Below, in pieces: positions 1 to 8,929 of a stretch of 8,929 nucleotides of DNA. The notes beneath the pieces were generated by a model, which had not been told where the DNA came from, ran no database searches, and worked only from the letters and a program-made list of their open reading frames with translations. The translations under genes were made by a program, and so were the position numbers. Source of the DNA: a virus. Lineage: Duplodnaviria > Heunggongvirae > Uroviricota > Caudoviricetes. The stretch lies in IMG/VR virus record IMGVR_UViG_2609459860_000002, positions 1 through 8,929 of that record. One strand, 5' to 3'. Each line of letters opens with the position of its first letter. Position 1 is the first letter of the stretch.

Positions 1-153
1 CTGGATGACATCCGGGCGGGACGCATTGAGCGCGCCATTTCACGCTGTCGCAATATCTGGGCGTCCCTGCCGGGTGCCGGTTACGGTCAGCGTGAGCATT
101 CACTGGAAAAACTGGTCACCGTCTGGCGTACCGCTGGCGGCGTACCGGCTTAA
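1..153 (+). CDS. K: Endolysin (P2 gpK-like), 3' end only; 5' end lies outside the window
   Basis: Frame-1 reading frame open from the window edge to TAA at 151-153 (ends ...EHSLEKLVTVWRTAGGVPA). It sits immediately upstream of lysA/lysB/lysC, as K does in the P2 lysis cassette. The assignment rests on position and on my memory of P2 K, not on a search. The ORF-track entry 5..334 is a different frame and is not this gene. Confidence 0.55.
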   Translation: MDDIRAGRIERAISRCRNIWASLPGAGYGQREHSLEKLVTVWRTAGGVPA

Positions 154-167
154 ACGGAGTAAACACC

Positions 168-593
168 ATGAAGAAATTATCCCTTTCACTGATGCTGAAC
201 GTGTCGCTGGCGCTGATGCTGGCACTGTCCCTGATTTACCCGCAGAGCGTGGCCGTCAATTTTGTCGCTGCCTGGGCGATTCTGGCGACGGTTATCTGTG
301 TGGTTGCCGGTGGTGTCGGCGTGTATGCCACTGAGTATGTGCTGGAACGCTACGGGCGGGAGCTGCCGCCGGAATCGCTGGCCGTGAAGATTGTCACGGC
401 GCTGTTTTTGCAGCCGGTGCCGTGGCGCAGGCGGTCAGTGGCTCTGGTAGTGATGGTGGCGACGTTTATCTCGCTGGTCGCTGCCGGGTGGATTTTTACT
501 GCGCTGATTTATCTTGTGGCGTCGCTGTTTTTCCGGCTGATACGTACGGCCTGCCGTCAGCGTTTTGAGGGGCGGGAACCATGTCAAAGCTGA
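168..593 (+). CDS. lysA: LysA-like lysis accessory membrane protein (P2 LysA family)
   Basis: 141-aa ORF with a GGAG Shine-Dalgarno upstream (about 158-161). The protein is dominated by long hydrophobic stretches consistent with several transmembrane helices. Position between K and lysB matches P2. Confidence 0.8.
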   Translation: MKKLSLSLMLNVSLALMLALSLIYPQSVAVNFVAAWAILATVICVVAGGVGVYATEYVLERYGRELPPESLAVKIVTALFLQPVPWRRRSVALVVMVATFISLVAAGWIFTALIYLVASLFFRLIRTACRQRFEGREPCQS

Positions 594-1006
594 TGACTGT
601 GCTGGTTGTGTTGTTATCACTGGCGGTGGCCGGTCTGTTTCTGGTGAAACATAAAAATGCCAGCCTGCGCGCCTCGCTGGACAGGGCGAACAACGTCGCC
701 AGTGAACAGCAGACGACCATCACCATGCTGAAAAATCAGCTTCATGTTGCGCTCACCAGGGCAGACAAAAACGAGCTGGCGCAGGTGGCACTGCGTCAGG
801 AGCTGGAGAACGCCGCGAAGCGTGAAGCACAGCGCGAGAAAACCATCACGAGGTTACTGAATGAAAACGAAGATTTCCGCCGCTGGTACGGTGCTGACCT
901 GCCTGATGCTGTGCGCCGGTTGCACCAGCGCCCGGCCTGCGCAGACGCCAGTGATTGTCCACAACGCCTGCCCGAAAGTGAGTCTTTGCCCGATGCCGGG
1001 CAGTGA
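581..1006 (+). CDS. lysB: LysB, Rz-like inner-membrane spanin (i-spanin)
   Basis: 141-aa ORF overlapping the lysA 3' end by 13 nt. It has an N-terminal hydrophobic anchor (MSKLMTVLVVLLSLAVAGLFLV) followed by a charged, coiled-coil-like periplasmic region, which is typical Rz architecture. It contains lysC in another frame. Confidence 0.8.
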   Translation: MSKLMTVLVVLLSLAVAGLFLVKHKNASLRASLDRANNVASEQQTTITMLKNQLHVALTRADKNELAQVALRQELENAAKREAQREKTITRLLNENEDFRRWYGADLPDAVRRLHQRPACADASDCPQRLPESESLPDAGQ

Positions 1007-1151
1007 CCCGCAGACGAACGGCGATTTAAGTGCCGATATCCGGCAGCTTGAGAACGCGCTGGCACGCTGTGCCAGCCAGGTAAAAATGATTAAACACTGT
1101 CAGGACGAAAACGATGCTCAAACCCGACAGCCTGCGCAGGGCGCTGACTGA
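861..1151 (+). CDS. lysC: LysC, Rz1-like outer-membrane lipoprotein spanin (o-spanin)
   Basis: 96-aa ORF that starts inside lysB in a different frame and runs past the lysB stop into R. A GAGG Shine-Dalgarno sits about 6 nt upstream. The N-terminus is a signal-peptide-like segment ending in a lipobox-like LCAGC, followed by a proline-rich mature region (PAQTPVIV...CPMPGSDP), the hallmark of Rz1-type proteins. Confidence 0.75.
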   Translation: MKTKISAAGTVLTCLMLCAGCTSARPAQTPVIVHNACPKVSLCPMPGSDPQTNGDLSADIRQLENALARCASQVKMIKHCQDENDAQTRQPAQGAD

Positions 1152-1581
1152 TGCCGTCACGGTGCTGAAAACTAACCCCGATATGCTGCGGATATTCGTG
1201 GATAACGGGAGTATTGCCTCCACACTGGCGACGTCGCTGTCATTCGAAAAGCGTTACACGCTCAATGTCATTGTGACCGACTTTACCGGTGATTTTGACC
1301 TGCTCATTGTGCCGGTGCTGGCGTGGCTGCGGGAAAATCAGCCCGACATCATGACCACCGACGCAGGCCAGAAAAAGGGCTTCACATTTTATGCAGACAT
1401 CAACAATGACAGCAGCTTTGATATCAGTATCAGCCTGATGCTGACCGAGCGCACGCTGGTCAGTGAGGTGGACGGCGCGCTGCATGTGAAGAATATCCCG
1501 GAACCCCCGCCGCCGGAGCCGGTCAACCGCCCGATGGAGCTTTATATCAATGGCGAACTGGTGAGCAAGTGGGATGAATGA
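1114..1581 (+). CDS. R: Tail completion protein R (P2 gpR family)
   Basis: 155-aa ORF, the size I recall for P2 gpR, in the expected position after the lysis genes. Its stop overlaps the S start (ATGAATGA). Confidence 0.8.
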   Translation: MLKPDSLRRALTDAVTVLKTNPDMLRIFVDNGSIASTLATSLSFEKRYTLNVIVTDFTGDFDLLIVPVLAWLRENQPDIMTTDAGQKKGFTFYADINNDSSFDISISLMLTERTLVSEVDGALHVKNIPEPPPPEPVNRPMELYINGELVSKWDE

Positions 1582-2032
1582 GTTTAAGCGTTTTGAAGAC
1601 CGGCTGACCGGACTGATTGAGTCGCTGTCACCGTCAGGGCGTCGGCGACTGGCGGTAGATATTGCGAAGAAGCTGCGCCAGCGCCAGCAGCAGCGAATTA
1701 AATTACAAAAAGCCCCGGATGGTACGCCGTATGTACCGAGAAAAAACCAACCAGTACGAAATAAGAAAGGCCGGATAAAGCGGGAAATGTTTGTGAAATT
1801 ACGCACTAACCGGTTTATGAAAGCAACAGGTAGCGAGAGTGCGGCGGTGGTGGCGTTTGCCAGCGGAGTACAACGAATTGCGCGAGTACATCAATTAGGG
1901 CTTAGGGATAAGCCGGGGCGTAATAGTGCTGTGGTGGAATATCCTGTTCGTGAGTTATTTGGTTTTGACAAGGAATCTATACAATTGATAGAAAGGGAGT
2001 TATTAGTGATTCTATCGAAAGATGTTATATGA
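1574..2032 (+). CDS. S: Tail completion protein S (P2 gpS family)
   Basis: 152-aa ORF whose N-terminus (MNEFKRFEDRLTGLIESLSPSGRRRL...) matches my memory of P2 gpS. The last 40 or so codons (from about 1900) lie in AT-rich DNA continuous with the downstream insertion. Its TGA (2030-2032) overlaps the ATG of the next gene (ATGA). Confidence 0.8.
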   Translation: MNEFKRFEDRLTGLIESLSPSGRRRLAVDIAKKLRQRQQQRIKLQKAPDGTPYVPRKNQPVRNKKGRIKREMFVKLRTNRFMKATGSESAAVVAFASGVQRIARVHQLGLRDKPGRNSAVVEYPVRELFGFDKESIQLIERELLVILSKDVI

Positions 2033-2784
2033 GACGGGTGTTTGTGGATAAAAAGTTTTCCATTTTGAGAAAAAGAGTAAAGCATTCTCAAAAGAAAGTT
2101 ATGGATTGTATTATTGCTGACCATAATGCTGATATATGTGTGTTATGCGGGAGTTCTGACGATATTACTCGTGAGCACATTATTCCTCAGTGGGCCTTTG
2201 AGTCAAATGCTGAAAAATCTTTAATTAATAAAAAGAATAATCAGTCAACTCATTACATTAAAGCTACTGTACCAGCATGCAGAGTGTGCAATTCTGATTT
2301 GCTGGGAGCGTTTGAGTATAACCTGAAGAAATTTCTTACGGAAAAGAGGGGCGATGAGTTAACAGATTATGAATATGACTGCATCATATGGTGGTTGCAA
2401 TACATGGGCTTTAAGTTGCAATTAATGGATTTACGGACCCGCTTTCTCAGGTATAAAGGGGGGGATTATATCCCTTTCCTTGCAAACTTCCCGGTTGCAA
2501 TGTTTTGGGGGAATGTCGATACGACACCGGAGGATGTCTTCAGGATTATAAGAAAATCGCGACGCAATCTGATGTCGAAATGGAAGGATAAAAAACATAA
2601 TTCTTTGATGGTTTTTGAAACATCAAACAAGAGTTTTCATTTCTTTCATAAGGTTGATGAATTTATTTTTATTGAAATGCCTCAGGTTAAGAAGGCGTTT
2701 TTCTTCTTTTTTAATAAAGAATTTGACAGCCATGATTTAGCTCATGAGGAGTGTATGAAGATTATAGAGAAGTGCTACAACTAA
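2029..2784 (+). CDS. Low-GC cargo ('moron') protein with an N-terminal HNH (beta-beta-alpha-Me) nuclease-like domain and an uncharacterised C-terminal region; function unknown
   Basis: 251-aa ORF, the only long ORF on either strand of the AT-rich island. HNH signature by direct reading: C37-x2-C40-G ... E49-H50-I-I-P ... C84-x2-C87-N (CVLCGSSDDITREHIIPQW...PACRVCNSD), i.e. two CxxC zinc knuckles flanking an E-H-I-I-P catalytic-histidine motif. Hand-counted GC is about 27-38% in 60-nt samples against about 58% in V. The start at 2029 is chosen for the ATGA overlap with S; an internal ATG at 2101 (M25) is an alternative start. Confidence 0.75.
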   Translation: MRRVFVDKKFSILRKRVKHSQKKVMDCIIADHNADICVLCGSSDDITREHIIPQWAFESNAEKSLINKKNNQSTHYIKATVPACRVCNSDLLGAFEYNLKKFLTEKRGDELTDYEYDCIIWWLQYMGFKLQLMDLRTRFLRYKGGDYIPFLANFPVAMFWGNVDTTPEDVFRIIRKSRRNLMSKWKDKKHNSLMVFETSNKSFHFFHKVDEFIFIEMPQVKKAFFFFFNKEFDSHDLAHEECMKIIEKCYN

Positions 2785-2861
2785 TATTTATTATGTTGTA
2801 TCACAGCTGACAGAATCCTCCATGATTGCTGCTGGTATCATCCAGCGGCATCCTTCCCGTT
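2785..2861 (+). promoter_or_regulatory. Candidate late promoter for the V-W-J-I-H transcription unit (P2 P_V-like, Ogr/Delta-activated class)
   Basis: A 77-bp intergenic gap directly upstream of V. It contains an imperfect dyad TGT(2794-2796)-N13-ACA(2810-2812), resembling the TGT-N12-ACA activator element of P2-type late promoters, and a TATCAT -10-like hexamer at 2836-2841. The spacing is one base off consensus and no transcript data exist, so this is weak. Confidence 0.25.
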
Positions 2862-3497
2862 ATGAACACTCTCGCAAATATTCAGGAACTCGCGCGCGCA
2901 CTGCGCAACATGATTCGTACCGGCCTTGTCGTCGAAACCGACCTTAACGCCAGTCGCTGCCGTGTGCAGACCGGCGGCATGTGCACCGACTGGCTTCAGT
3001 GGCTGACCCATCGCGCCGGGCGTTCGCGCACATGGTGGGCACCTTCCGTGGGGGAACAGGTGCTGATTCTGTCCGTGGGCGGCGAACTCGACACGGCGTT
3101 TGTTCTGCCGGGGATTTATTCCGGCGATAACCCTGCGCCGTCTGCGTCGGCTGATGCCCTGCATATCCGTTTCCCTGACGGGGCGGTGATTGAGTATGAA
3201 CCCGAAACCAGTGCACTCACGGTAAGCGGAATTAAAACGGCCAGCGTGACGGCTTCTGATTCTGTTACTGCCACGGTGCCGGTGGTCATGGTGAAAGCAT
3301 CAACCCGCGTCACTCTGGACACGCCGGAGGTGGTCTGCACAAACAAGCTGATCACCGGCACGCTGGAAGTGCAGAAGGGCGGGACGATGCGCGGCAACAT
3401 TGAACACACCGGCGGTGAACTCTCATCAAACGGGAAGGTACTGCATACCCATAAACACCCCGGCGACAGCGGCGGCACAACCGGGAGTCCTCTATGA
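2862..3497 (+). CDS. V: Baseplate central spike protein V (P2 gpV family)
   Basis: 211 aa from ATG 2862 (MNTLANIQELARALRNMIRTG...HTHKHPGDSGGTTGSPL), matching my memory of P2 gpV in sequence and length. The ORF-track start at 2826 is a TTG in the same frame and is probably not the true start. The stop overlaps the W start (ATGA). Confidence 0.9.
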   Translation: MNTLANIQELARALRNMIRTGLVVETDLNASRCRVQTGGMCTDWLQWLTHRAGRSRTWWAPSVGEQVLILSVGGELDTAFVLPGIYSGDNPAPSASADALHIRFPDGAVIEYEPETSALTVSGIKTASVTASDSVTATVPVVMVKASTRVTLDTPEVVCTNKLITGTLEVQKGGTMRGNIEHTGGELSSNGKVLHTHKHPGDSGGTTGSPL

Positions 3498-3841
3498 CAG
3501 CGCGTTATCTCGGAATGAATCGCAGTGATGGCCTGACTGTCTCTGACCTTGAGCATATCAGCCAGGGTATCGGCGATATCCTGCGCACGCCGGTCGGCTC
3601 ACGGGTGATGCGTCGTGATTACGGCTCGTTGCTGGCGTCAATGATTGACCAGCCGCAGACCCCGGCGCTTGAGTTGCAGATTAAGGTCGCCTGTTACATG
3701 GCCGTGCTGAAATGGGAACCCCGCGTCACCCTGTCATCCGTCACCACGGCGCGCAGTTTTGACGGGCGAATGACGGTCACGTTAACCGGTCAGCACAACG
3801 ACACCGGCCAGCCACTTTCGTTAACCATCCATGTGAGTTGA
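3494..3841 (+). CDS. W: Baseplate wedge protein W (P2 gpW, T4 gp25-like)
   Basis: 115-aa ORF in the conserved position after V, translationally coupled to it (ATGA overlap). The size matches P2 gpW. Confidence 0.88.
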   Translation: MTARYLGMNRSDGLTVSDLEHISQGIGDILRTPVGSRVMRRDYGSLLASMIDQPQTPALELQIKVACYMAVLKWEPRVTLSSVTTARSFDGRMTVTLTGQHNDTGQPLSLTIHVS

Positions 3842-3845
3842 AACC

Positions 3846-4754
3846 ATGCCGATTATCGACCTGAACCAGCTACCCGCACCGGATGTGGTCGAGGAGCTGG
3901 ACTTTGAAACCATTCTTGCCGAACGCAAGGCGACACTGATTTCCCTTTACCCGGAAGACCAGCAGGAGGCGGTCGCCCGTACCCTGACGCTGGAATCTGA
4001 GCCTCTCGTCAAACTGCTGGAGGAAAATGCTTATCGTGAGCTTATCTGGCGTCAGCGTGTGAATGAGGCCGCACGGGCGGTGATGCTGGCTTGTGCCGCC
4101 GGTAATGACCTTGATGTGATTGGTGCCAATTACAACACCACGCGCCTGATTATCACCCCGGCAGATGATTCGACTATCCCGCCGACACCGGCAGTGATGG
4201 AGTCTGACACCGATTATCGTCTGCGTATTCAGCAGGCGTTTGAGGGCTTAAGCGTCGCCGGGTCGGTGGGAGCCTATCAGTATCATGGTCGCAGTGCCGA
4301 CGGGCGCGTCGCAGATATCTCTGTCACCAGTCCGTCTCCGGCCTGCGTCACCATCTCTGTGCTGTCACGTGAAAATAACGGCGTCGCATCCGAAGACCTG
4401 CTGGCCGTGGTGCGTAACGCCCTTAATGGCGAGGACGTCAGGCCGGTGGCCGACCGCGTGACCGTGCAGTCTGCCGCCATTGTTGAATATCAGATAAACG
4501 CCACGCTTTACCTTTACCCAGGTCCCGAAAGCGAACCCATCCGCGCTGCTGCCGTGAAAAAACTGGAAGCGTACATCACGGCACAGCACCGGCTTGGGCG
4601 CGACATCCGTCTGTCTGCCATTTATGCCGCTTTGCATGTGGAAGGCGTGCAGCGTGTCGAACTGACTGCACCTCTGGCTGACATCGTGCTCAACAGTACG
4701 CAGGCGTCTTTCTGTACTGAATACCGCGTCGTGACTGGAGGCTCGGATGAGTGA
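3846..4754 (+). CDS. J: Baseplate protein J (P2 gpJ, T4 gp6-like)
   Basis: 302-aa ORF in the conserved position after W. The size matches P2 gpJ. Its 3' end overlaps the I start by 8 nt. Confidence 0.88.
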   Translation: MPIIDLNQLPAPDVVEELDFETILAERKATLISLYPEDQQEAVARTLTLESEPLVKLLEENAYRELIWRQRVNEAARAVMLACAAGNDLDVIGANYNTTRLIITPADDSTIPPTPAVMESDTDYRLRIQQAFEGLSVAGSVGAYQYHGRSADGRVADISVTSPSPACVTISVLSRENNGVASEDLLAVVRNALNGEDVRPVADRVTVQSAAIVEYQINATLYLYPGPESEPIRAAAVKKLEAYITAQHRLGRDIRLSAIYAALHVEGVQRVELTAPLADIVLNSTQASFCTEYRVVTGGSDE

Positions 4755-5358
4755 TTCGCGCCTGCTGCCGACCGGCTCATCACCGCTTGAAGTCGCCGCC
4801 GCAAAAGCCTGTGCGGAAATTGAAAAAACGCCGGTCAGTATTCGTGAGCTGTGGAACCCGGATACCTGTCCGGCAAATCTGCTGCCGTGGCTGGCGTGGT
4901 CATTTTCGGTTGACCGCTGGGATGATAAGTGGCCGGAAGCGACAAAACGCGCTGTTATCCGCGATGCGTATTTCATTCACTGCCATAAGGGCACTATTGG
5001 TGCGATTCGCCGTGTGGTGGAGCCGCTCGGATATCTGATTGAGGTGAGGGAGTGGTGGCAGCTCAACGAGGAGCCGGGGACGTTCCGCATCGTTGTTGGC
5101 GTGCTTGAGCAGGGTATTACCGAGGAAATGTATCAGGAGCTGGAGCGCCTCGTTGCTGATGCAAAACCGGCGAGCCGCCATCTGACGGGACTGGCTATCA
5201 GTTTAAGTACAACCGGCAACATTTTTGCCGGTGCGGGATGCTATCACGGTGACGCCCTGACGGTTTATCCCTACACCCCGGAGGCCATTATTGTCGGAGG
5301 GGATTATTTCCCGGCCTCGGCCATTCATTTAATTGATAACCTGAGAGTAAACGCATGA
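4747..5358 (+). CDS. I: Baseplate protein I (P2 gpI family)
   Basis: 203-aa ORF between J and H in conserved synteny, with an ATGA overlap onto the H start. It is somewhat longer than the P2 gpI length I remember (about 176 aa), so the start codon choice is uncertain. Confidence 0.8.
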   Translation: MSDSRLLPTGSSPLEVAAAKACAEIEKTPVSIRELWNPDTCPANLLPWLAWSFSVDRWDDKWPEATKRAVIRDAYFIHCHKGTIGAIRRVVEPLGYLIEVREWWQLNEEPGTFRIVVGVLEQGITEEMYQELERLVADAKPASRHLTGLAISLSTTGNIFAGAGCYHGDALTVYPYTPEAIIVGGDYFPASAIHLIDNLRVNA

Positions 5359-6635
5359 CAGTGAAATACTACGCCATTCTGACTAATCAGGGCGCAGCAC
5401 GGCTGGCTAACGCGACGATGCTCGGCAGTAAGCTGAATCTGACGCAAATGGCCGTTGGTGATGCGAATGGTATCTTGCCGACACCAGACCCGGCACAGAC
5501 AAAACTGATTAATCAGAAACGCATTGCACCGCTGAATCTTCTGAGTGTTGACCCGAACAACCAGAGCCAGATTATTGCGGAGCAAATCATCCCTGAGAAC
5601 GAGGGCGGATTCTGGATCCGTGAGATTGGGCTTTATGATGATGAAGGCGTACTCATTGCGGTGGCGAACTGCCCGGAAACGTACAAACCGCAGTTGCAGG
5701 AAGGCAGTGGTCGTACCCAGACTATCCGCATGATTCTGGTTGTCACGAATACCGAAGCTATCACGCTGAAAATCGACCCGTCGGTGGTACTGGCGACCCG
5801 TAAATACGTGGATGATGAAGTCCTGGAATTAAGGCTGTATGTGGATGACCAAATGAGAAACCATATTGCCGCACAGGATCCTCATACCCAGTATGCACAG
5901 AAACATAATCCGACATTTACCGGAGAACCAAAAGCGCCGACGCCTGCTGCAGGAAATAACACCACGCGGATTGCGACCACTGCGTTTGTTCAGGCGGCTA
6001 TTACCGCTCTGATTAACGGTGCGCCTGCCACGCTGGATACACTGAAAGAAATTGCCGCAGCCATTAACAATGACCCGAAATTCAGCACCACCATTAACAA
6101 TGCGCTGGCAGGTAAACAACCGCTGGACAATACGCTGACTCATTTGAGTGGAAAGGATGTTGCCGGTCTTCTCGCATACCTTGGTTTGGGAGAAGCGGCA
6201 AAACGAAATGTGGGCAACGGGGAAAACCAAATCCCTGATATGTCTTTCTGGACGGTTACTGGTGGCAATGGAAATTTTGTGATTCGTCAACCTGACGGGC
6301 TAATCATTCAGATGGTTACTGTAAGTATAAGCGGTCCAGTGGCGATGAATGGAATGACTGATAATGCTTATGCCATTACAGGTTCTAATAAGTCTTATAT
6401 TGCCACAGCCACATTGCCCTTTGTATTTCCTAATAAGGTGCTGGGCGTTATCCCTCTGGTATCAACAACAGCTTATGGTGGTGTATCCAGTAATATTACA
6501 GGTTCATACGCGACGGCGGTTTGTTCTTTTGCCGCTGTCAGGGGGAATAATACGATTGTGTTCAAAGTCGACAAACCACTGAATGCAGCCTTTCCTTCAG
6601 ATACCAGCGTCTCAGCGTTAATCATTGGACGGTAA
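5355..6635 (+). CDS. H: Tail fiber protein H: conserved N-terminal baseplate-attachment region fused to a variable C-terminal tip in the currently expressed orientation
   Basis: 426-aa ORF whose N-terminus (MTVKYYAILTNQGAARLANA...) is the conserved P2 gpH start. GC drops to about 42% after roughly nt 6200. The 26-bp crossover site at 6169-6194 lies in frame within codons for LLAYLGLGE, so residues after about 280 are encoded inside the invertible segment. Confidence 0.9.
   Translation: MTVKYYAILTNQGAARLANATMLGSKLNLTQMAVGDANGILPTPDPAQTKLINQKRIAPLNLLSVDPNNQSQIIAEQIIPENEGGFWIREIGLYDDEGVLIAVANCPETYKPQLQEGSGRTQTIRMILVVTNTEAITLKIDPSVVLATRKYVDDEVLELRLYVDDQMRNHIAAQDPHTQYAQKHNPTFTGEPKAPTPAAGNNTTRIATTAFVQAAITALINGAPATLDTLKEIAAAINNDPKFSTTINNALAGKQPLDNTLTHLSGKDVAGLLAYLGLGEAAKRNVGNGENQIPDMSFWTVTGGNGNFVIRQPDGLIIQMVTVSISGPVAMNGMTDNAYAITGSNKSYIATATLPFVFPNKVLGVIPLVSTTAYGGVSSNITGSYATAVCSFAAVRGNNTIVFKVDKPLNAAFPSDTSVSALIIGR
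6169..6194. repeat. Left crossover site of the invertible tail-fiber segment (gix/cix/pix-like, 26 bp), inside H
   Basis: TTCTCGCATACCTTGGTTTGGGAGAA. Its partner at 8153-8178, read as reverse complement (TTTTCATAAACGTTGGTTTGGGAGAA), matches at 21 of 26 positions including the last 14 consecutive bases. The two sites are therefore in inverted orientation, as inversion requires. Confidence 0.75.
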
Positions 6636-6637
6636 GA

Positions 6638-7081
6638 ATGAACTCAGTATTCTTTTCACCCGGAAGTAAAAGTTTTTATCTGCAAGAATTGTTTCCAGAA
6701 TATGAGGATGCGGGAACGCTTCCTGATGATGTTATTGAAATTACCAGAGAAACATATGAGCAATTTCTTGGGCTGCATCCAGAAGGGAAAGAAATTGGCG
6801 CTGACAGTTCAGGACGACCAGTATGGATTAATTCCCCACCGCCTTCAAAAGAGGATGAGGTGCTGGCGGCTGAAATGAAAAAAATATCTTTGGTTTCAGA
6901 AGTCAATACCTACATCAATACCCATCAGTGGCCTGGCAAAGCTGCTATTGGTCGTCTGAAAGGTGACGAGCTGGAACAATATAATTTATGGCTGGATTAT
7001 CTGGACGCACTGGAACTGGTTGATATCTCCAGCGCTCCAGATATTGAATGGCCTACGCCTCCGGCAGTTCAGGCCAGATGA
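6638..7081 (+). CDS. G: Tail fiber assembly protein (Tfa, P2 gpG-like), partner of the currently expressed fiber tip
   Basis: 147-aa ORF directly after H. Its C-terminus (...LVDISSAPDIEWPTPP...) is the conserved Tfa C-terminal motif, also present in the opposing tfa' (...TDTSTAPDVIWPELPEA). Confidence 0.8.
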   Translation: MNSVFFSPGSKSFYLQELFPEYEDAGTLPDDVIEITRETYEQFLGLHPEGKEIGADSSGRPVWINSPPPSKEDEVLAAEMKKISLVSEVNTYINTHQWPGKAAIGRLKGDELEQYNLWLDYLDALELVDISSAPDIEWPTPPAVQAR

Positions 7082-7655
7082 CGTCCGGCGCTGTGCTGGT
7101 ATCTGTTGCCGTCACCGCGTCAATATAATCCAGCACAGCGTTAAGTCGGGTGTTTTCTGTCTGCATCAGCTTCCGCCCGGCCTGCAATTTCAGTTGAATC
7201 AGACTAATGGAAGCCATTGCAGTATCAATCAGTGACTGACGCTGTGCTTCTGCCGCGCCTACTGCGGCGCTATGCTGTGCCTCAGTATCGGTCACCCATT
7301 TCTCACCATCCCATTTATCGTATGGCGTTAACGGGGCGATAGTGGTTGTATTTTCAGGATAATCACCCGGAGCTGTGATTTCTTTCGATTCTCCTGTTTC
7401 GGTGCTATAGATGATTTCACCGCGATGGTCTGGCACATATTCCCATGAGTTAAAATCTGCAGAACGGCAGATTGCATAACCAGCTTTATGTGTAACTGGT
7501 GTATCTAAACAAGAACATGCCGGGATACCGACGCCAACCGCAAGATATTCAGTTGATGTGGAAATATATTCCCGTGTTTCACCATCATAATTATAAATGG
7601 TAATGACTCCCGCTTTTATGGCAATGAGTTCGTTATTTAATACGGCTTTATTCAT
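7053..7655 (-). CDS. Alternate tail fiber assembly protein (Tfa'), cognate to the inverted fiber tip
   Basis: 200-aa ORF on the - strand with the Tfa-type C-terminal motif. Its 3' end overlaps the + strand tfa 3' end by 29 bp (7053-7081). Its ATG overlaps the stop of the upstream - strand fiber-tip segment (TGATG). Confidence 0.82.
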   Translation of the reverse strand: MNKAVLNNELIAIKAGVITIYNYDGETREYISTSTEYLAVGVGIPACSCLDTPVTHKAGYAICRSADFNSWEYVPDHRGEIIYSTETGESKEITAPGDYPENTTTIAPLTPYDKWDGEKWVTDTEAQHSAAVGAAEAQRQSLIDTAMASISLIQLKLQAGRKLMQTENTRLNAVLDYIDAVTATDTSTAPDVIWPELPEA

Positions 7656-7657
7656 CA

Positions 7658-8167
7658 GGCAGCCCTCACGATATAATTAAAGGCAATGTTACGAGGACGG
7701 TTTTCGTTTGCAGTTGGAACAATTCTTGAAGCATCAAGGCCAATCACTTTTGGGTAAACAGCGCCATCTGTTCTTTCTGTCACCATACTTCTGATTAAGG
7801 AGAAATAACTATTGTTCGTTGAGGGGTTCAAAGGCACCACTGCCCCCTTAAAAGAGCCTGCTGATTCCCATATTGAATAATTTTCGGTGTTTACAGTCTT
7901 GAACTCACCATAGATATTACGTATGGCATCGCCCTGAGCTGATAATATTGTTCTCCCCGCATCCGCACTACGCCCATCATCCCAGCCACGAATAAATTCA
8001 CCGCGTAAATCAGGCAATTTATTTGTCGGGTAAGCCTTTGCCAGTTCCGGGTATTCTTCAGCAGAAAAAGCTGCTCCGTTGCATTTCAGCCAGCCTGTTG
8101 GCGGAGTGGCTGAGGGCCACGGAACAGGCACCCCAACAGGTAATGCAGAGCCTTCTCCCAAACCAAC
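7658..8167 (-). CDS. Alternate tail-fiber C-terminal tip (H', promoterless and startless; expressed only after inversion fuses it to the H N-terminal region)
   Basis: The - strand frame is open through the right crossover site, encoding ...VGLGEGSALPVGVPVPWPSATPPTGWLKCNG...NIAFNYIVRAA. The ending NIAFNYIVR(L/A)A is the canonical C-terminus of P2 H / Mu S-type fibers as I recall them. The ORF-track Met codons at 8201-8206 lie beyond the crossover and are not a real start. Confidence 0.82.
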
Positions 8168-8178
8168 GTTTATGAAAA
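8153..8178. repeat. Right crossover site of the invertible segment (26 bp)
   Basis: TTCTCCCAAACCAACGTTTATGAAAA, located about 55 bp upstream of the invertase start. Its left half-site TTCTCCCAAACC is the reverse complement of the right half-site of the 6169-6194 site. It closely resembles cix/gix-type sites from memory. Confidence 0.75.
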
Positions 8179-8233
8179 TGCAGAGATAACGGCTAACTGG
8201 CATCATCTCCGGTTTTTATTCAGGGGATCCATC

Positions 8234-8827
8234 ATGCTTATTGGCTATGTCCGCGTATCAACAAATGACCAGAACACGGAATTGCAGCGTAACGCGCTGG
8301 AATGCGCGGGATGTGAGCGGATTTTTGAGGACAAAATCAGCGGCACGAAGTCCGACAGGCCGGGACTGAAAAAACTGCTCAGGACATTATCGGATGGGGA
8401 TACACTGGTAGTCTGGAAGCTGGACCGGCTGGGGCGTAGTATGCGGCATCTGGTCATTCTAGTTGAGGAACTGCGCGAACGTGGCATTAATTTTCGCAGC
8501 CTGACGGATGCTATTGATACCAGCACGCCGATGGGGCGTTTTTTCTTTCATGTGATGGGTGCCCTGGCTGAAATGGAGCGAGAACTCATTGTCGAGCGGA
8601 CACGCGCCGGACTGGAAGCGGCCAGAGCCAAAGGTCGTATTGGTGGCAGACGTCCGAAACTCACCGCGAGTGAGTGGGAGCAGGTCGGACGGTTGCTGGC
8701 TGCGGGGGAATCTCGTCAACGCGTGGCGCTGATTTTTGATATTGGCCTGTCCACGCTCTATAAAAAATTCCCCTCATCAGCGACAAAGAATAAATTGTGT
8801 CATCCCTTAGCCAACCGGGACAAATAG
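8234..8827 (+). CDS. Serine DNA invertase, Gin/Pin/Cin/Hin family
   Basis: 197-aa ORF beginning MLIGYVRVSTNDQNT..., with the catalytic Ser at residue 9 (TCA, 8258-8260). It carries conserved invertase blocks (GDTLVVWKLDRLGRSM, GINFRSLTD, MGRFFFHVMGALAEMERELI, RIGGRRPKLT) and a C-terminal helix-turn-helix region (...RVALIFDIGLSTLYKK). An AGGGGA Shine-Dalgarno lies upstream. I cannot tell from sequence alone which named invertase it is closest to. Confidence 0.92.
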   Translation: MLIGYVRVSTNDQNTELQRNALECAGCERIFEDKISGTKSDRPGLKKLLRTLSDGDTLVVWKLDRLGRSMRHLVILVEELRERGINFRSLTDAIDTSTPMGRFFFHVMGALAEMERELIVERTRAGLEAARAKGRIGGRRPKLTASEWEQVGRLLAAGESRQRVALIFDIGLSTLYKKFPSSATKNKLCHPLANRDK

Positions 8828-8886
8828 CCTGACATCTCCGGCACAACTGAAAATACCACTCACCCATTAACCACGGAGTTAAACGG

Positions 8887-8929
8887 ATGAGTGACTATCA
8901 TCACGGCGTGCAGGTGCTGGAGATTAACG
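8887..8929 (+). CDS. FI: Tail sheath protein FI (P2 gpFI family), first 14 codons only; continues beyond the window
   Basis: ATG at 8887 preceded by a GGAG Shine-Dalgarno (8874-8877). It encodes MSDYHHGVQVLEIN, which matches my memory of the P2 FI N-terminus. It is too short for the ORF track. Confidence 0.6.
   Translation, partial: MSDYHHGVQVLEIN

Follow-up and report, generated by a model that had tools for sequence, protein, structure and literature searches.

A divergent HNH-like cargo gene in the variable S-V slot of P2-like prophages and its possible role as a conflict nuclease

Why does a single AT-rich gene lie between the tail genes S and V of a P2-like prophage, and what might its product do? 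The question is raised by an 8,929-nucleotide stretch of viral DNA (record IMGVR_UViG_2609459860_000002, positions 1 to 8,929; "the window" below always means this whole stretch), which corresponds to the late-gene region of a P2-like (Peduovirus) Escherichia coli prophage. An open reading frame (ORF) of 251 amino acids (aa), at 2029..2784 on the plus strand, is found between the gene of the tail completion and virion morphogenesis protein gpS (1574..2032, plus strand; PF05069, E 2.5e-29) and that of the baseplate spike gpV (2862..3497, plus strand; PF04717, E 9e-21, and PF18715, E 2e-28). The list of ORFs and the Pfam matches of both flanks agree with the initial annotation of this DNA, and the base composition also corresponds to its description of AT-rich cargo among GC-rich tail genes, with a GC content of 0.364 for the cargo ORF, 0.565 for positions 1-1858 and 0.583 for positions 2862-5300. 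We propose, tentatively, that the cargo protein is a single-protein conflict nuclease that would cut competing foreign DNA, for defence or exclusion. Its nuclease activity, its target and its defensive role are inferred.

Its homologues, a family match and the selection acting on it indicate that the cargo ORF is a genuine gene rather than a random reading frame. A word-indexed search returned 45 homologues and an exhaustive profile search 888, with 34 cluster representatives matched over their full length at E <= 1e-30 in the latter. The protein matches phrog_10503, a family without annotated function, from end to end (E 3.2e-181, positions 1-251 of 251). Comparison with the copy in phage R18C gave a nonsynonymous divergence (dN) of 0.012 and a synonymous divergence (dS) of 0.102, with a ratio omega of 0.115; between genera, dS was saturated and dN ranged from 0.14 to 0.39. 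The gene is under purifying selection over its full length. Two start codons can be considered: an ATG at 2029, sharing the sequence ATGA with the stop codon of gpS, and a GTG at 2044, where R18C possesses an ATG. As most homologues start with MDKKF, the product is probably the 246-aa form encoded by 2044..2784, which is also the form of the public entry for an identical E. coli protein (WP_248841599.1, labelled "hypothetical protein"). The residue numbers below refer to the 251-aa form.

The putative catalytic core (2137..2316, plus strand) is composed of C37xxC40G, the pair E49-H50, an insert containing N70, the motif C84xxC87-N88 and E96, and the residues numbered by the initial annotation (C37, C40, G41, E49, H50, I51, I52, P53, C84, C87 and N88) are correctly placed. 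In alignments reaching down to 22% identity, the only invariant positions are C37, C40, E49, H50, P53, W55, C84, C87, N88 and W122, and N70 and E96 are nearly so. The pattern C..C-[EDH]H-insert-C..C[NH] was observed in 171 of the 225 collected relatives. In an AlphaFold2 model of the protein (pTM 0.82, mean pLDDT 77.7, with about 90 in the core apart from the insert), E49-H50 end a predicted strand covering residues 46-50 (pLDDT about 93), and a second strand (80-84) runs directly into a helix (85-105) which carries N88 in its first turn. Low confidence was limited to the insert (60-74) and to a linker (139-161). The predicted layout is the canonical beta-beta-alpha-metal arrangement. A search of the PDB with a profile of the catalytic region placed the GVE2 phage HNH endonuclease 4h9d first (E 0.02), with both halves of the motif aligned in order, and four further HNH-domain chains among the top twelve; the matches obtained with the full-length profile were all spurious and were rejected. 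Sequence and model consistently suggest a divergent HNH (His-Me finger) core, no single test being decisive. The motif reported by the initial annotation is conserved and of the HNH type; the word "textbook" applied to it was an overstatement, the core being atypical with its insert of about 30 residues.

In the proposed mechanism, the cargo protein would be a stand-alone, zinc-stabilised HNH DNA endonuclease. The likely general base is His50, at the end of strand beta-1, and Asn88, probably together with Glu96, would bind the catalytic metal from the following helix, while the two CxxC pairs would hold the finger together. The rest of the protein is a family-specific C-terminal region (2317..2781, plus strand), rich in invariant aromatic residues and predicted to form two long helices, then the linker 139-161 and a four-stranded sheet with helices. 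This half of about 150 residues had no sequence or fold match in the Pfam, PDB and fold searches, and may serve in target choice or regulation. DNA-binding modules of the NUMOD, IENR1, AP2 or helix-turn-helix (HTH) types were not detected, as no Pfam match was seen outside the HNH motif at E values up to 1. Likewise, no modified-DNA reader domain was recognised by Pfam, PDB or fold search, although a novel reader in the C-terminal half could escape such searches. The targets may be other phages, satellites or other elements. Since no methylase, immunity protein or sensor ATPase accompanies the gene, discrimination between self and non-self would have to be built into the protein itself. It could rely on DNA modification or structure (the logic of type IV enzymes and McrA), on a specific site of rare occurrence, as for homing endonucleases, or on activation restricted to infection.

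The distribution of the family shows two very different settings. All placed homologues with at least 56% identity but one are found in the order R-S-[gene]-V of P2-like prophages of Enterobacterales, including divergent prophages with different lysis cassettes. The exception, at 62% identity, is carried by an Erwinia integrative and conjugative element (ICE), between TraG and an integrase and in the company of a KAP NTPase and ArdC. In the P2-like prophages of other genera, the identity of the HNH protein (67-71%) is similar to that of R, S and W (62-72%), which suggests a long-established gene rather than one that invaded repeatedly. At about 40% identity, approximately 28 relatives belong to Vibrio, Photobacterium, Shewanella, Psychromonas, Halomonas, Paraglaciecola, Pseudomonas, Bacteroidota, Desulfobacterales, Dechloromonas and a Gracilibacteria genome, and P2 tail genes are near none of them. 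A search seeded with a distant 315-aa relative (P0170) yielded five unannotated proteins, and two distant members lie on contigs too short to provide a context. Among 50,697 phage records searched, only R18C carries the family, and none of 72,556 plasmid records gave a match. This near absence from phage records is unlike typical phage homing endonucleases.

The neighbourhood of 26 loci outside P2-like prophages (150 neighbours) was scanned for a partner, antitoxin or immunity gene. No neighbour family occurs in more than two of the 26 loci; the gene therefore appears to stand alone, in agreement with its first description as single-gene cargo. The neighbours include five integrases, two Mrr-type enzymes and one type IV restriction enzyme (mREase_IV), GajB, Mokosh-like helicases, the PADLOC candidates PDC-M02, S31, S37 and HEC-06, a RES toxin, DUF6161, LysR and many ordinary housekeeping genes; the relatives located in chromosomal islands adjoin genes for Mrr, an SF1 helicase, the RES toxin and an integrase. 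A 40%-identical homologue in a Desulfobacterium metagenome-assembled genome (MAG) (locus L037, 7220-7969) lies co-oriented between genes for a gpA-type terminase and a lambda-type portal; this is the second instance of a family member inserted among the morphogenesis genes of a phage operon, here that of an unrelated lambda-like prophage. As a separate observation, two loci assigned to a Sporobacter termitidis MAG (L018) and to Chryseobacterium sp. 18061 (L019) include DNA of enterobacterial-type P2-like prophages, with R, S, V, W and J 62-82% identical to those of the window; this prophage DNA is probably the result of contamination or mis-binning.

The place occupied by the gene is variable, as the initial annotation had proposed. 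In phage L-413C, as in most sequenced P2-like phages, the S-V gap measures 66 bp and contains no cargo. In P2, the S stop codon precedes, in this order, the O-operon terminator, Orf30 (261 aa, encoded on the other strand), the activator-binding site of pV and V. In a set of 5,426 complete E. coli genomes, a P2-type V gene was present at 1,810 places, and in 1,581 E. coli genomes V shares 95-98% identity with the gpV of the window. The commonest cargo there is P2-type orf30, with 482 places in 464 genomes (about 27% of the slots). The HNH-like gene was seen at 79 places, approximately 4% of the P2-type S-V slots, most copies being intact. In 12 genomes the slot is filled by a 414-aa AAA/STAND-like ATPase on the opposite strand, which matches the PADLOC defence candidate PDC-S59 (E 6e-31) and is illustrated by E. 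coli CFSAN061770 (locus L014, 2965-4209) and by locus L015. The slot of a Klebsiella pneumoniae P2-like prophage holds, downstream of the HNH gene, a convergent 216-aa ORF (locus L008, 7926-8576) which had no Pfam or PADLOC match, and the carrier slot of locus L019 shows an extra stretch of about 1.1 kb. Kinship among the HNH protein, P2 Orf30 and the Klebsiella 216-aa protein was considered and rejected for every pair; for Orf30 and the HNH protein, already described as unrelated-looking, hhalign gave a probability of 0.4%. The S-V junction was listed as one of three moron regions in the description of R18C (PMC6823313). The same paper reports P2 ORF30 as "261-bp-long"; NC_001895 (locus L057, 1140-1925) gives a minus-strand gene of 786 bp, or 261 aa. 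That P2-like prophages supply anti-phage systems is established, and work on them has so far centred on the old/tin and Z/fun hotspots; the large hotspot studies dealt with these and other sites and only touched on late-gene hotspots. The S-V junction represents a third slot, located inside the late genes and existing in at least four states in E. coli (empty, orf30, HNH gene and PDC-S59-like ATPase).

The limits of the transferred segment could be positioned by comparison with these alleles. On the right, a segment at 2793..2820 (plus strand) likely corresponds to the Ogr-type activator-binding site of the late promoter pV, by comparison with P2: it lies 69 nt from the V ATG and begins with ATGTTGT, both as in the annotated P2 site of NC_001895. 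The cargo stop codon is 8 nt upstream of this putative site, and similarity to the empty allele of L-413C restarts there. On the left, the limit is found inside gpS, which is a three-part mosaic. Nucleotides 1-75 of the gene are identical to L-413C and universal, nucleotides 76-285 are common to the HNH carriers and to E. coli prophages with the PDC-S59-like cargo, and nucleotides 286 to the end (from about 1859 in the window) are specific to the HNH cargo and AT-enriched. This last part (1859..2032, plus strand; about 57 codons, 41% GC) is linked to the cargo and would form the left portion of the transferred module. From the gpS divergence point and the boundary on the pV side, the foreign module is thus larger than the ORF and covers approximately 1859-2792, and the mosaic structure implies recombination breakpoints inside an essential tail gene. 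The linkage is strict. Of the complete E. coli genomes, 79 possess the entire gpS allele and 77 the cargo gene, and in Klebsiella, Kosakonia and other genera the carriers have in common a gpS C-terminus of the type ..SIQLIE.ELL.., which non-carriers lack. In all carriers, the GC content is 33-36% for the gene, 41-47% for the gpS 3' end and 57-60% for the phage. The presence/absence polymorphism at S-V has a precise right boundary and a left boundary within gpS, a picture compatible with co-conversion, but the PDC-S59-like cargo, which is not a nuclease, shows the same type of boundary. In the proposed reading, the cargo moves between P2-like phages by recombination in gpS and at the pV promoter.

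How well does a conflict nuclease account for these observations? Defence or exclusion is ranked first because the family is distributed over islands, an ICE and prophage hotspots, because defence-type genes are among its neighbours, because the alternative cargo of the same slot resembles PDC-S59, because strong purifying selection extends over the full length, and because the family is nearly absent from sequenced phages. If this reading is true, the gene would constitute a new and compact system made of one gene, with a novel domain for specificity or sensing. Several points weigh against it. The defence-type neighbours constitute an association and not an enrichment, as they were counted without a background control. 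No system of PADLOC-DB v2.0.0 was matched, the best hits (PDC-M01B, E 0.022, and Cas8c, E 0.035) being spurious or restricted to the motif; NCBIfam gave no match either, and the protein is, as first supposed, not a named defence protein. The profile matches to HNH families are below the curated thresholds. In place of the HNH family match such as PF01844 anticipated over residues 30-95, the Pfam search returned HNH_5 (PF14279) as the top family with 16.6 bits for a cut-off of 27.5, over residues 37-54 only. HNH_5 was also the top Pfam match of each distant member tested, always sub-threshold. These weak scores are explained by the insert of about 30 residues which separates E49-H50 from C84xxC87-N88: once the insert was shortened in silico, HNH_5 rose to 24.3 bits (positions 1-43 of 56, E 3e-5), with both halves of the motif included, and PF01844 reached 19.8 bits for a cut-off of 21.4 (positions 1-42 of 47, E 9e-4). 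No Pfam HNH family passed its curated threshold with either the native or the trimmed sequence, and the fold searches gave no significant match.

The position of the gene raises a further difficulty for the defence reading, which the earlier reading of the sequence had overlooked. All P2-like carriers have the gene in the same orientation as gpS and 0-15 nt from it, either with the ATGA overlap or with a gap of 12-15 nt; P2 orf30 and the PDC-S59-like cargo are, by contrast, on the opposite strand. Simple scans revealed no upstream promoter above the shuffled expectation, a type of search that a weak or H-NS-regulated promoter could escape, and no terminator either before the gene, between it and S, or after it. 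A perfect TTGACA at 1964-1969 was rejected as a promoter, since a -10 element at a suitable distance is missing and the other carriers do not share the sequence; no conserved, well-spaced sigma-70 promoter was found in the gpS 3' end of the carriers. The gene thus has the appearance of a final cistron in the late O operon. This operon is silent in lysogens, and the position counts somewhat against a classical defence moron expressed in the lysogen. Compared with the description of a moron, the gene does lie between two genes that are adjacent in relatives and has a deviant GC content, and it lacks a detectable promoter and terminator of its own. Expression in the lysogen is the main unexplained point of the defence reading, which would suppose either a weak promoter in the gpS 3' end or an action in the late phase. 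A more specific and unlikely version of the same idea supposes a new immune nuclease made of one protein. Its C-terminal half would be a novel sensor or reader allowing the long-insert HNH core to cut invading DNA in the absence of a partner gene. S-V would be a defence slot, previously unstudied and located at the end of a late operon, from which the nuclease could act on co-infecting phages or P4-type satellites while the prophage itself passes through its lytic cycle.

The same promoterless position counts in favour of the strongest alternative, which we consider doubtful and which supposes a free-standing HNH homing endonuclease. Expressed with the late genes in lytic growth, it would cut the S-V junction of P2-like genomes devoid of the gene, whether co-infecting or resident, and be copied there through recombinational repair together with the gpS 3' end, the divergent sequence of which would provide immunity. 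HNH is a classic homing-endonuclease fold (PMC5714182), and the insertion is compact and limited to the ORF, with about 12 nt before and 8 nt after it and no expression signal of its own in the late operon. Its sporadic presence, its co-conversion-like linkage, in E. coli as in the other genera, to the divergent 3' end of gpS, and the homologue embedded in the lambda-like prophage are also in favour of homing. However, the relatives at about 40% identity occupy non-phage settings, namely chromosomal islands beside Mrr, helicase, RES and LysR genes, to which the Erwinia ICE is added, and a single phage, R18C, carries the family. None of the DNA-binding modules searched for in Pfam was found, whole-length selection is strong with most copies intact, and the divergence in other genera matches that of the tail genes R, S and W. 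Moreover, the PDC-S59-like cargo possesses a gpS 3' end of its own, so that linkage to gpS is a general feature of the slot. If homing were nevertheless true, temperate P2-like phages would offer one of its rare documented cases, and the mosaicism of gpS would be explained.

A helper nuclease of the lytic cycle, made late along with the tail proteins, and not in the lysogen for the benefit of the host, to degrade the DNA of the host or of a competitor (a resident prophage or a P4-type satellite) or to counter a host defence, is less probable still. The gpS junction looks translationally coupled in all P2-like carriers without an intervening terminator, and R18C, which has the gene, was isolated and propagated lytically. 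Such a helper is dispensable, though, since about 96% of the E. coli P2-type prophages do without it, and the family has relatives outside phages. P2 DNA is not known to carry a protective modification, so that a late nuclease without specificity would put the genome of the phage itself at risk. A non-catalytic, HNH-like zinc finger binding DNA or protein, for example a regulator or an anti-defence binder, would agree with the uniformly sub-threshold HNH profiles, the atypical insert and an active-site geometry without a confirming fold match, but is very improbable, as His50, Asn88 and Glu96 show, together with the cysteines, complete or nearly complete conservation and inactivated HNH domains usually lose the catalytic His or metal-ligand residues. 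A packaging HNH nuclease of the HK97 gp74 type was rejected outright, the gene being missing from most P2-like phages and having relatives outside phages.

Under both the conflict-nuclease and the homing readings, the subject is a small gene that can be easily cloned and is available in a culturable phage, R18C, and a conserved, partner-less family of about 250 aa that is also carried by an ICE, chromosomal islands and other prophages. The remainder of the window is of the ordinary P2 type on the left, with a membrane-protein ORF (168-593), a lysis cassette in which the overlapping LysB/LysC-type spanin ORFs are located at 581-1006 and, within the same segment, 861-1151, and gpR (1114-1581; PF06891, E 3e-45). 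To the right of gpV, the genes W, J and I are followed by the tail-fibre region and the invertase. The segment 6169-8827 has the appearance of an invertible host-range switch similar to the G segment of Mu: 27-nt inverted repeats resembling the Gin/Cin/Hin crossover sites (6169-6195 and 8152-8178) lie on either side of two minus-strand features, a tail-fibre assembly gene (7053-7655) and an alternative tail-fibre C-terminus (7655-8206). The ORF of a serine invertase of 197 aa comes next, at 8234-8827.

Comparison with known systems helps to define what is new. The sequence itself is not: it corresponds to ORF16 of R18C (YP_009883387.1; 97% amino-acid identity, same S-V position), to PHROG 10503 and to hundreds of "hypothetical protein" records. 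The suggestion of the initial annotation that the protein might be undescribed is thus correct for its function, of which no record exists, and not for the gene. ORF16 was presented in 2019 as a moron replacing P2 orf30, without a function, PSI-BLAST having been uninformative (PMC6823313). Nothing distinguishes the two genes, and the HNH motif passed unremarked in those records; in a literature search this was the only description of the gene, and no paper found dealt with its relation to HNH proteins, the limits of the family, its contexts or the biology of the slot. P2 Orf30 (NP_046770.1) similarly is non-essential, AT-rich and located in the S-V slot, but its sequence is unrelated and it lies on the opposite strand, downstream of the O-operon terminator. 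The resemblance to PDC-M01B is weak and limited to the N-terminal motif (E 0.022 for the cargo protein, E 9.7e-6 for the relative P0170); PDC-M01 is a two-gene candidate whereas the cargo gene has no partner, and the match of the cargo protein is not significant.

Among HNH proteins of mobile elements, McrA, from the e14 prophage, is a single-gene, partner-less type IV enzyme acting on foreign DNA. As a stand-alone prophage HNH nuclease of E. coli, it offers a model for defence without an immunity gene; it differs from the cargo protein in having no detectable sequence similarity beyond the HNH motif and in the domain order, which is reversed (the HNH core is N-terminal in the cargo protein), and no reader domain was recognised in the latter. 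The homing endonucleases of the T4 MobA-E type share with it an HNH domain, a compact insertion in an operon, a sporadic presence and co-inheritance of the flanks. The cargo protein differs from them by the lack of known homing DNA-binding modules, by relatives in non-phage islands and in an ICE, by its absence from other sequenced phages and by strong purifying selection. Group 1 of the His-Me finger nucleases includes HNH_5, 4h9d, McrA, the HNH domain of Cas9 and the T4 Mob endonucleases (PMC5714182). With the classic members of this group (PF01844, PF14279 and 4h9d), the cargo protein has in common the order CxxC ... [D/E]H ... CxxC-N and the predicted beta-beta-alpha layout. It differs by a linker from EH to CxxCN of approximately 27-30 residues, compared with about 11 in 4h9d, and by a 150-residue C-terminal region without counterpart in classic HNH nucleases such as 4h9d. 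An HNH nuclease carried as accessory cargo of a mobile element is a known kind of protein, and nothing observed so far points to an unusual mechanism; the long-insert core and the unmatched C-terminal domain are what make this family atypical.

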